Assembly: GCA_045802605.1 (NCBI GenBank)
Contig: JBJMQS010000037.1
Coordinates: 59,420-123,419, forward strand
Reading direction: 5' to 3'
Origin: Gemmataceae bacterium
Lineage (GTDB): Bacteria; Planctomycetota; Planctomycetia; Gemmatales; Gemmataceae
Length of the DNA: 64,000 nucleotides
The translations under genes were made by a program, and so were the position numbers. Below, piece after piece: positions 15,610 through 20,489 of the stretch; positions within the stretch are counted from its first letter, which is position 1, and every line of letters starts with the position of its first letter. Under the pieces are notes generated by a model. It had not been told where the DNA came from and made no database searches. It worked only from the letters and a program-made list of their open reading frames with translations.

Positions 15610-18600
15610 CTACTCGCTTATCGAAATCACATTCGTGCCGTCGAATTGGCCGGTCGAGCGGTTGTAGGTGATCTTGTCGGCTTTGAAGATCTGCGGTTTC
15701 TGGCCACGCGCGACTTGCTTGGTCAACACCGCGGGCCGGCTGCGGGTGCCCTCGAAAATCACTTGCTGCGACGCTTCGTTGTACTTGATGATGTCGGCAT
15801 CGCCGTTGACGTCGTCAAACTGCACTTTGGCTTTTTCCTTGGCGATCATGATGTGCGTTTTCTTGCCGTTGGCTTCTTCCGTGTAAACCTCGAGCACATC
15901 GCACTTCATGTACAAGGCGCCTTTGGGCAAATGATCAATCAAGCGGTTGAGATTGAGCCGTAAGCCTGGATCATCCGCGGGCAGATGCAGGACCTCGACG
16001 CCGCGCCAGAATTTGGCGGTGCGCTTTTCGTTCTCGACCGCGAGCTTGCTGCCGTAGCGAACATAGGTCAGCTTCATTTCTTCTTCGGCGGGTGGTGGCG
16101 GAGTCTTCAGGGCGGGCCCGCGATCGGGCAACGGCGAGAGGCCGCCATTTTTCGGCCCGGGCTGCAGGATGCGCACTTCGCCGGGGCCGGCCGCCTCAAG
16201 TTGGCCGGTCTTTTTGAACACCGCGAGCTCGCGCGATTCGATACGTTGATAGCGCACCAATTGATCTTTCTCGCGGATGCTGTCTTCCACGCTGACCGGC
16301 TGAGCGCCATCTTCGCCGGTGGTGACACAGATGACCTTGTCCACGTTGGCCGCCCGACTGGGATTCTGGTTGGCCTGGGGATCTTGCTGGCCGAGGCGAA
16401 CGCGCTGATCAAGCGTCACCTGCATGTGGTGGCACAACAGGCGAGTGTTTTCCTGGTCCGCCTGCACATGGCCATAGAACTCGGCGAGCGTGCCGTCGAA
16501 GTCCATCTTCTCCTTCCAGGAGACCTGCAGATCGGTGGGCTTCTGCAGCTTGTTGCCCTGGAAGTCAGTGGTGGACAAGATTCGCATCGCGCCCGGCCCA
16601 AAGACGTTGGCGCGATTTTCGACTTGGTCCAACTCGATCAGTGGCCCAAGCAATGCAATGTCCGGTAATATCATTTCAGCGGGTCGTTCGGTTTCACCCT
16701 TGAGCGTGAGCTTGTGCCCATCGGATTTGTGCACGAGCTCCAGCGCGTCGCCGCGCATGTCCACCGGTTTCTCTTGCGGGTTGGCACCATCTTGGTGCAC
16801 GCGGACGTGGCCTTCGCAATGAACATCATCCAACTCGGTCGGACCCGACTGCCGTGTCAACAGGTTCGCTTGAATGGTCGTCGCGGAAAGATCCAAAGGC
16901 GGCTTCGGAGGAGCGGGCTGCGCTTTGGGCTGCGTCGCTGTCTGTAGTGGAATGACGCCGGGCGGCGCGGGCGCCCCGCCAGTCGAGACCGAAACGCCGG
17001 GCGCTTCTGGTGAGGGTTTTGCTACAGGCGCGTTCTGGAAGAGGAGCACGAGAACGTCGGTGTCATGCACCTTCAATTCCGGCGATTTCGCCGTCACCGA
17101 TCCCGTCACTTCCAGTCGCCGCGGTTTGGACCGGCCTGGGCCCAGAGCTGCGGGGCGGTCGCTCGGCACGGCTTCGGGCGCCAGGGTCAACTTGATCTGA
17201 TCGCCGCTGATCGATTGCTTCCGCTCGAGGTCCTCGAAGCCGGCGGCCCCGGCGAGGTGGATCTGTTCCAGCCCGCCTTCCTTGCGGTAGTGCATGCGAT
17301 CGCGCCAGCGGGCGATCACCGTGTGGCCGCCTTCGCCGCCCTCTTCGCCGGTCATCTGGCCGCGGAAATAGCCTTCGCCTTCCGCGGTCGCACCTTGGCC
17401 GCCGGCCGCGTCGGGAGCGGACAACACGATCTGGGGCGCGTGAATCTCGTGCCCTTCCTTGATGGCGGTGACTTCCGGCGTCCCTTTGAGCGTCGTCAGT
17501 TTGGTGTTGGCGTCGTGAAATAGATCGTTGCCGTGCGCTTGCAAATTCTCCGCCTGCGAGGTCAGCACGATGTACTTGCCCCAGGCATGTGCCCATCGCA
17601 ATGATGACTCCGCATCTTGCTTCACCGCGATATTGGTCTGTGGGCCATCTGGCTTTTGTGGCGGATGAGCGAATTGCATTTCGAGCACTTCGCAATCGAG
17701 CCGATCGTAAAACGTCACGCCGTCTTTGACGAGCGGGCGGACGACCTGCACGGGGCTTTGCTGGTCACCCGGTTTCATTTCGAATCGGGCCAAGTCAGCC
17801 TCTTGGCCAACGTTGTATATGAACGCGCCGGGGGTCGTAATCTGCACATTCGATCGTTCGCCGGGGGCCTGCGCGGCGGGCTGCTGCGCCTGGCCGGCCG
17901 CAAGGAAGCCGCCCTTGGGATCGATCCAAAGATTCATCGTCACATCGGCGGGCAGCACGACCTTGCTCACGCCGCTGACGCTACCGGTTTTTGGAACTTG
18001 TTTACCTTTCGCCACCGCTGTTTTCGGCGGCGGCTGACTCGGTGCGGACATCAAGTAAATGTCCATGCCCTGCGCTGTCACCGTTGTGCCGTGCGGTTGG
18101 CCCCGCTTATCGGTCAAGCGCACTGCCGCCGCGGTGCGAATCTGCGGCGATGCTTTATCTGGCGGGGGCTCGGGCGAGGGCAGTTCGCGATACGCCACGG
18201 GGCCGGTCGTTTCCAAAATCAAATCATCGTTCGGATCGGTTGTGCCGCGGTTGTGATTGCAGGTCACGCGGTGCCGGCGAATGTCGGGACTCAACAGCGT
18301 CGGATCGCTCACGAGGTCGCAGCCGACGATTTTCCGCTTGCCCATCTCGGCGAGGTTCTTCACCGGTTGGTCGAATAGCAGATACGCTTCATCCGAGTGG
18401 ACGGTGTAAACCTCGGGATCAACGCCGAGGCCTCGCTCTTTCACGACTGCGATGGAGAACGGTTTGAGCTTGCAGCGGCCATCTTCGAATGTCACTTGGT
18501 TCATCGCCAAGATGACGCCGTTCTTTTGCAATTCGAGCCGGTGGTTGTAGCGCAACTCTTCGCATTGCGGGCCGAAGGCACGCTGGAGCTTGACGTCGAT

Positions 18601-18780
18601 GATCTGATTGCGCGATGGCGTCGGGAAGTCGGCATCGTCGGCCGTGCGGCGCTCGAAATAGGCGGTGGGCAAGGGCGGCAGCCCGTCGATCCGGCCCAAT
18701 ATCTGGTAGTAGCCGAAATAGAGCGCAGTGCACCCCGCGATGCCAACGAGTAACAGGACGAGTCGCCGCGGGGTCCACAC
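15610..18780 (-). CDS. Large (1056 aa) N-terminally membrane-anchored periplasmic protein with OstA/LptA-like beta-jellyroll-type repeats; candidate LptC/LptA-like LPS-transport bridge component
   Basis: Single N-terminal TM (LVLLLVGIAGCTALYFGYY). The C-terminal IFKADKITYNRSTGQFDGTNVISI resembles the LptA/OstA motif, and there are several G-x-V...GD-L-L segments. It lies immediately downstream of kdsD-kdsC, where lptC-lptA sit in proteobacteria. Confidence 0.4.
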   Translation of the reverse strand: MWTPRRLVLLLVGIAGCTALYFGYYQILGRIDGLPPLPTAYFERRTADDADFPTPSRNQIIDVKLQRAFGPQCEELRYNHRLELQKNGVILAMNQVTFEDGRCKLKPFSIAVVKERGLGVDPEVYTVHSDEAYLLFDQPVKNLAEMGKRKIVGCDLVSDPTLLSPDIRRHRVTCNHNRGTTDPNDDLILETTGPVAYRELPSPEPPPDKASPQIRTAAAVRLTDKRGQPHGTTVTAQGMDIYLMSAPSQPPPKTAVAKGKQVPKTGSVSGVSKVVLPADVTMNLWIDPKGGFLAAGQAQQPAAQAPGERSNVQITTPGAFIYNVGQEADLARFEMKPGDQQSPVQVVRPLVKDGVTFYDRLDCEVLEMQFAHPPQKPDGPQTNIAVKQDAESSLRWAHAWGKYIVLTSQAENLQAHGNDLFHDANTKLTTLKGTPEVTAIKEGHEIHAPQIVLSAPDAAGGQGATAEGEGYFRGQMTGEEGGEGGHTVIARWRDRMHYRKEGGLEQIHLAGAAGFEDLERKQSISGDQIKLTLAPEAVPSDRPAALGPGRSKPRRLEVTGSVTAKSPELKVHDTDVLVLLFQNAPVAKPSPEAPGVSVSTGGAPAPPGVIPLQTATQPKAQPAPPKPPLDLSATTIQANLLTRQSGPTELDDVHCEGHVRVHQDGANPQEKPVDMRGDALELVHKSDGHKLTLKGETERPAEMILPDIALLGPLIELDQVENRANVFGPGAMRILSTTDFQGNKLQKPTDLQVSWKEKMDFDGTLAEFYGHVQADQENTRLLCHHMQVTLDQRVRLGQQDPQANQNPSRAANVDKVICVTTGEDGAQPVSVEDSIREKDQLVRYQRIESRELAVFKKTGQLEAAGPGEVRILQPGPKNGGLSPLPDRGPALKTPPPPAEEEMKLTYVRYGSKLAVENEKRTAKFWRGVEVLHLPADDPGLRLNLNRLIDHLPKGALYMKCDVLEVYTEEANGKKTHIMIAKEKAKVQFDDVNGDADIIKYNEASQQVIFEGTRSRPAVLTKQVARGQKPQIFKADKITYNRSTGQFDGTNVISISE

Positions 18781-19416: not shown

Positions 19417-20489
19417 GCGCTCTCCCGCAAGTCAGCGCTTCGAACTTCGAGTTTTGGTTTCGGCGTGGCGGACTTGAGATTGCGGGGGCCGGTCTGAACG
19501 GGAACGCCGATGAGATCGGTGACGTCCAGCAAACCGACCGGATGGTTGCCCCCATCGACGACGGGCAGCTCGCTGATCTTGTAAGCCCGCATCAGGTCCA
19601 GGGCTGCGCCGACTCGGCTACCCACGAGTACCGTGAGCGGATCGCAAGTCATCACATCACGCACGGGCCGGTCAAGGGCCGTGTCGTGCTTGCGCTCGAA
19701 CAGTTTGGCCAAGTCGCTATCGGTAAATAAACCGCACACGCGCTCATGCTCATCGACGAGCACTACCGCTCCGGTACGGCGGCCCGGATGCCGGCTTTGT
19801 ACGAAGACTTCACGCACGGTGAGATCGGCCGATGCCACCCGCAAGTCGTGGCCCGTGCGCATCATCGTCTCGACGAGCGCGAGCTTGAGGCCGAGGCTGC
19901 CGGCGGGATGATATTTTGCGAACTGCTCGGCGGAGAACTGACGGCCACCCGCCAGGGCGCAGGCGAGCGCATCGCCCAGCGCGATCATAACCGTGGTCGA
20001 GGTGCTCGGTGCGAGGGCGAGCGGGCCGCTTTCTTCGATGGGCCCGTAGATAATGGCGGCGTCGGCGGCGCGGGCGAGCGTGCTCTGGGCGTCGGCAGTC
20101 ATGGCGACAATGTTGGCCGCGAGATCGGCGAGCGGACCGAGCAAGCGGACCAACTCTTCGCTTTCGCCCGAATGCGAAAGAGCGAGCACCACGTCATCGT
20201 GGTGGACCATGCCCAGGTCGCCATGGAGCGCTTTGGTGGCGTCGAGTAAGTAAGCGCGGGTGCCGGTAGAGTTGAAGGTGCCGGCGATCTTGGTGGCGAC
20301 ATCGGCCGATTTGCCGATGCCGGTGAGCCCCACCCGGCCGGTGCAGTTGTTCAAAAGTTCCACGGCTTGGGTGAAGCCATCATCGAGCCGATCCGCGACC
20401 AATTGCAACGCGGCCGACTCGGCCCGCAGCACCCGCCGGGCCGCGTCGAGCGGCGTGGCGTCCAGGCGGATTGTCGGCGATGGGTGCAT
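19413..20489 (-). CDS. kdsD: Arabinose-5-phosphate isomerase (SIS domain + tandem CBS domains)
   Basis: SIS domain (VGLTGIGKSADVATKIAGTFNSTGT...LALSHSGESEE) followed by two CBS domains. The start is set to ATG 20489 with 'agggagg' upstream; a 4-nt overlap with kdsC. Confidence 0.8.
   Translation of the reverse strand: MHPSPTIRLDATPLDAARRVLRAESAALQLVADRLDDGFTQAVELLNNCTGRVGLTGIGKSADVATKIAGTFNSTGTRAYLLDATKALHGDLGMVHHDDVVLALSHSGESEELVRLLGPLADLAANIVAMTADAQSTLARAADAAIIYGPIEESGPLALAPSTSTTVMIALGDALACALAGGRQFSAEQFAKYHPAGSLGLKLALVETMMRTGHDLRVASADLTVREVFVQSRHPGRRTGAVVLVDEHERVCGLFTDSDLAKLFERKHDTALDRPVRDVMTCDPLTVLVGSRVGAALDLMRAYKISELPVVDGGNHPVGLLDVTDLIGVPVQTGPRNLKSATPKPKLEVRSADLRESA

Follow-up and report, generated by a model that had tools for sequence, protein, structure and literature searches.

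In Escherichia coli, the genes for the periplasmic Lpt bridge follow two Kdo-precursor genes in the order kdsD-kdsC-lptC-lptA-lptB. LptC (YrbK; 191 aa) consists of an N-terminal transmembrane helix and one jellyroll, and LptA (LptH) is a soluble secreted monomer of ~185 aa that forms a non-covalent oligomer. The number of LptA units in the E. coli bridge is debated, as is its adaptation to envelope width (PMC7347655), and bridge assembly is sensitive to the width of the periplasm (PMC8824477). Both LPS and LptD are known in planctomycetes (PMC3422733, PMC10632474); Speth et al. 2012 reported LptD in every planctomycete genome that they studied (PMC3422733). The literature that we searched yielded nothing on the periplasmic part of the planctomycete LPS pathway, and the essential-gene supplements for Planctopirus contain no Lpt or OstA terms. 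A comparable problem is solved by TamB, YhdP, VPS13 and BLTP1/LPD-3 with one long chain, anchored in one membrane, whose continuous β-groove extends over an aqueous gap. In TamB and YhdP an N-terminal anchor is followed by about 1000-1300 residues of β-groove across the periplasm.

Examination of a 64-kb stretch of a Gemmataceae genome (henceforth the window) verified three open reading frames on the minus strand where the preliminary description had placed them (Table 1). The product of the first scores 228.8 bits against TIGR00393 (KpsF/GutQ; cut-off 203.7) and contains one SIS (PF01380) and two CBS (PF00571) domains in Pfam; its true start is likely the in-frame ATG at 20489, which is residue 21 of the ORF. 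The start of kdsC overlaps the stop of kdsD by 4 nt, and its product reaches 150.7 bits with TIGR01670, the model of the YrbI/KdsC family (cut-off 106.95). The third and longest gene opens with GTG, a start that is credible because the N-terminal sequence MWTPRR, with M or V as its first residue, is kept throughout the family. These matches bear out the original claim of a kdsD with SIS and two CBS domains, a HAD-type kdsC and then a 1056-aa gene on the same strand. The locus mirrors the start of the E. coli order, with the long gene immediately 3' of kdsD-kdsC as is lptC in E. coli.

That the long gene occupies the slot of lptC-lptA, as had been proposed, holds across related loci. Among 39 of these, recovered with a 6-sequence alignment and a motif that biases them toward Gemmatales, the long gene comes straight after kdsC in 38, and kdsD lies upstream in 35; the kdsD-kdsC-long gene order also occurs in one Pirellulales MAG (locus L041) and in three distant relatives. 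The family comprises 1851 representative clusters at E≤1e-30, the best 150 of which are nearly all full length. Given this breadth, and full-length homologues reaching down to 26% identity, the long gene is not a chance ORF. Across the family, module lengths are constant and linker lengths variable. Its existing database label is "LptA/OstA family protein", and we found no paper describing the architecture in the literature searched.

Table 1. Features of the kdsD-kdsC-long gene locus, in window coordinates; modules, helix and linker are predicted, with residue numbers of the 1056-aa protein
Feature	Coordinates	Strand	Remarks
kdsD-like arabinose-5-phosphate isomerase gene (SIS + 2 CBS)	19413..20549	-	ORF opens at TTG 20549
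kdsC-like Kdo-8-phosphate phosphatase gene (HAD, YrbI family)	18892..19416	-	TIGR01670
Perfect 24-nt inverted repeat, 25-nt loop	18818..18890	-	kdsC-to-long-gene spacer
1056-aa membrane-anchored multi-jellyroll Lpt-type gene	15610..18780	-	whole gene, stop codon included
N-terminal transmembrane helix (4-27)	18700..18771	-	AF2 helix; top Kyte-Doolittle segment; preceded by MWTPRR
Juxtamembrane motif G-x-I-D-G-L-P-x-L-P (29-38)	18667..18696	-	family-specific
Module A (56-244), first β-jellyroll	18049..18615	-	LptC/LptD-N-like by fold only
Module B (268-371), short β module split by a disordered loop	17668..17979	-	AF2
Module C (393-583), LptA/LptD_N-type repeat, long β-hairpins	17032..17604	-	hhalign; PF03968 in relatives
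Pro/Ala-rich disordered linker (584-628)	16897..17031	-	pLDDT < 50 at 589-620
Module D (629-800), LptA/LptD_N-type repeat	16381..16896	-	PF03968 and hhalign
Module E (813-876), short β module akin to part of C	16153..16344	-	hhalign
Module F (900-1056), canonical LptA-like jellyroll	15613..16083	-	PF03968 at 953-1044 (15649-15924)
Perfect 40-nt inverted repeat, strong hairpin	15492..15596	-	begins 14 nt past the long-gene stop codon

The long gene is never followed by lptB, either in the window or in the 39 related loci, and none of lptB, lptF, lptG, lptD and lptE occurs in the window or adjoins the long gene in those loci. Downstream there lies instead, in agreement with the preliminary description, an unrelated polytopic membrane protein, a 618-aa ORF (13532-15388) that has no Pfam family and whose weak match to the LpxK model lacks significance (E 0.012; 14.7 bits, cut-off 92). 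We rejected this ORF as a part of the kds-long gene unit, since it has no counterpart downstream of the long gene in any of the 39 loci and is set off by a hairpin with a 40-bp stem. This hairpin (RNA fold -94.1 kcal/mol, z -8.9), which is unique in the window, closes the three-gene unit; because it lacks a following T-run, it does not count as a classical intrinsic terminator. The palindrome between kdsC and the long gene (RNA fold -71.4 kcal/mol, z -7.5) is one copy of a dispersed palindromic element, with a second copy at 4181-4239. It is not shared by the closest relative (L004), in which ~40 nt separate kdsC from the long gene.

Profile searches uphold the earlier suggestion of multiple OstA/LptA-like segments. 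PF03968 (LptA/LptD_N) matches the C-terminal residues 953-1044 (E 9.3e-10; 39.2 bits, cut-off 20.4) and is found in 29 of the 36 family members; the motif IFKADKITYNRSTGQ near the C-terminus falls inside or just beyond this match and aligns with IKGDKITYLVKEQK of E. coli LptA. Scanned alone, the middle region likewise passes the PF03968 cut-off (25.0 bits, best stretch residues 758-804 in module D), and five of nine relatives do the same, the best with 44.8 bits (E 1.7e-11); in relatives P0004 and P0020 the match lies within module C (25.9 and 25.1 bits). Comparison of the modules with hhalign relates C to D (90.6%, E 1.3e-6, 136 columns), C to E (87%, E 4e-6), D to F (~37%, E 3.6e-4, 113 columns) and C to F (~37%); for module B no sequence link to the remaining modules was found. 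The TIGR03002 LptA equivalog model gives 29.7 bits, below its cut-off of 71.7, and hhalign of the family against the single E. coli LptC and LptA sequences yields only a weak, C-terminal match to LptA. The protein thus falls outside LptA sensu stricto, which is soluble, ~160-200 aa long and made with a cleavable signal peptide: in contrast to the secreted LptA monomers, its units are fused and bound to the inner membrane by the anchor.

The AlphaFold2 model (mean pLDDT 81.6, pTM 0.61) is of all-β, Lpt-type fold after one N-terminal helix, with strands from 80 to 1055 and almost nothing else. It displays the consecutive antiparallel strands of the β-jellyroll that characterizes the LptA/OstA superfamily, and module B is modeled as strands at 268-286 and 310-371 with pLDDT ~90. 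Taken with the sequence repeats, the model shows about five to six LptA-sized all-β modules separated by Pro-rich loops. These disordered loops reach 45 residues (e.g. 589-620) and could interrupt a groove; the linker at 584-628 spans 36-97 residues across the family and consists of 84% P/A/G/S/T/K/Q. With a pTM of 0.61 and such linkers, the packing between modules in the model is uncertain. Hydrophobicity of the strand faces, a crude proxy for a lipid groove, does not discriminate: it is lowest in module C (0.50), 0.81 in F although this module is LptA-like, and 1.5-1.9 in A, B and D.

Foldseek searches with this model recover LptA and LptC at a probability of 1.00, and LptD too. That the protein is a divergent LptD, an outer-membrane LPS translocon, is a reading we judge to be scarcely credible: the aligned lengths of 122-162 residues correspond to the N-terminal jellyroll of LptD and not to its 26-strand barrel, no PF04453 barrel match is seen in the protein or its family, and an N-terminal transmembrane anchor after RR takes the place of a cleavable signal peptide. 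The OstA domain is moreover C-terminal, so that both the domain order and the membrane are the opposite of those in LptD, whose C-terminal barrel is lacking here.

The N-terminal region bears out the proposed single LptC-like anchor. Each family member has one transmembrane-like segment (residues ~7-27 by Kyte-Doolittle), a conserved hydrophobic helix of ~20 residues that comes after the RR and coincides with the AF2 helix; its conservation, together with that of the flanking motifs, fits an uncleaved anchor. In the juxtamembrane motif G29, D32, G33 and L34 are invariant and P35, L37 and P38 at least 90% conserved among 36 family sequences. The string IAGC (residues 14-17) was also considered as a lipoprotein signal and this reading was rejected, given that Cys17 is not conserved in the family. 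The predicted topology, a transmembrane helix and then a jellyroll, is the bitopic one of LptC, whose single jellyroll would correspond to the first ~190 residues. Of the two Pfam families named in the preliminary description, PF03968 was thus present and PF06835 (LptC) was not: it matches none of 36 family members at E≤0.1, nor any of 10 N-terminal thirds at E≤10. The NCBIfam LptC models also do not match the 1056-aa protein, and its N-terminal third has no Pfam match at all. The family differs further from LptC in having two conserved motifs peculiar to it, MWTPRR and GxIDGLPxLP. Hence "LptC" denotes here an analogy of fold and position rather than family membership. A comparison of the family with an E. 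coli LptC profile in hhalign gave no signal, and the control of LptC against LptA, with reference profiles narrowly built from sequences of at least 80% identity, was equally blind; accordingly, a lack of sequence matches for modules A and B says nothing either way. Profiles of the full-length and N-terminal alignments retrieved nothing from PDB sequences even at E≤10, by a method too insensitive for this clan.

An N-terminal third devoid of an LptC sequence signature would also suit a long, anchored LptA paralogue that supplies only one part of the bridge, or that builds an alternative one; a conventional LptC, and perhaps also an LptA, would then be encoded at another site, and this LptC would make the contact with LptFG. 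Since the lpt genes of bacteria other than Proteobacteria are mostly dispersed (PMC8871954), an unlinked lptC is possible; we regard this arrangement as unlikely. The interpretation of the long protein as a fused LptC-LptA bridge is supported for both sequence and fold, and we consider it probable that the protein is a single-chain, inner-membrane-anchored segment of the periplasmic Lpt bridge, combining the role of LptC with that of several LptA units.

The top full-length Foldseek match is LPD-3, a bridge-like lipid-transfer protein (E 1.3e-7, probability 0.98, TM-score 0.11). With its anchor and a putative long β-groove the 1056-aa protein would share the single-chain principle of TamB, YhdP, VPS13 and BLTP1/LPD-3, and a phospholipid bridge of the AsmA/TamB/YhdP type with a chance OstA-like C-terminus could be envisaged from this architecture and the LPD-3 match. 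The very low TM-score marks the likeness as analogy and not membership; the repeat unit is an OstA/Lpt jellyroll as opposed to the RBG/AsmA β-taco, with no sequence homology between them, and the AsmA, DUF490, DUF748 and DUF3971 profiles find no match in the protein; we hold such a bridge to be highly improbable. The same match to a bulk-lipid bridge protein, and the lack of an adjoining ABC transporter gene, would be in keeping with an envelope-spanning tether or spacer, or a carrier of hydrophobic cargo other than LPS, be it phospholipid, hopanoid or sterol, or lipoprotein, built from Lpt-type modules; Lpt components are reported to handle lipoproteins in some bacteria (PMC12065857, bioRxiv 10.1101/2022.12.21.521298). 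We find this quite improbable, as the homology is to LptA/LptD_N and not to the AsmA/TamB, Mla or Lol families, and the near-universal same-strand linkage to the two overlapping Kdo-precursor genes indicates LPS as the cargo.

In light of the above, we propose that in the fused bridge the transmembrane helix and module A might play the part of LptC, docking on LptF/G and accepting LPS from LptB2FG, a transporter whose genes would lie at another site, with modules C, D/E and F standing in for several LptA units. The acyl chains of lipid A could then slide in the hydrophobic groove of the concatenated jellyrolls, and the C-terminal LptA-like module might pair strands edge to edge with the N-terminal jellyroll of LptD and so deliver LPS to it, as happens in E. 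coli. As the units are covalently joined, their number, and hence the bridge length, would be set by the gene. With about 150 residues per 4-5 nm jellyroll, as in LptA, the ~860 ordered residues would span, on a rough estimate, 20-30 nm. A tie between a long bridge and the enlarged periplasm is plausible; the planctomycete periplasm can far exceed the width of any ~25 nm bridge (PMC5394234).

Probably, then, the long gene encodes a planctomycete one-piece version of the LptC-LptA bridge in place of two small genes, and it fills a gap in the picture of the planctomycete envelope. A natural fusion of an LptC-like anchor with LptA-like units would provide a bridge whose composition is defined, a good subject for cryo-EM or cryo-ET, and would allow one to ask whether drive from one end moves LPS along a much longer groove. 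Given the size and full-length conservation of the family, this would be the standard solution of a major lineage and not a curiosity. More tentatively, a single gene may encode the entire periplasmic span of the LPS bridge throughout Planctomycetia: a covalent chain of about five to six jellyrolls, which would replace LptC and the LptA oligomer, fix stoichiometry and length, and set the distance from inner to outer membrane at export sites. If true, TamB/YhdP and the VPS13-type single-chain lipid bridges would have their counterpart within the Lpt system in this one-gene LPS bridge, and the membrane distance at sites of LPS export would be fixed in cells with an otherwise highly variable periplasm.

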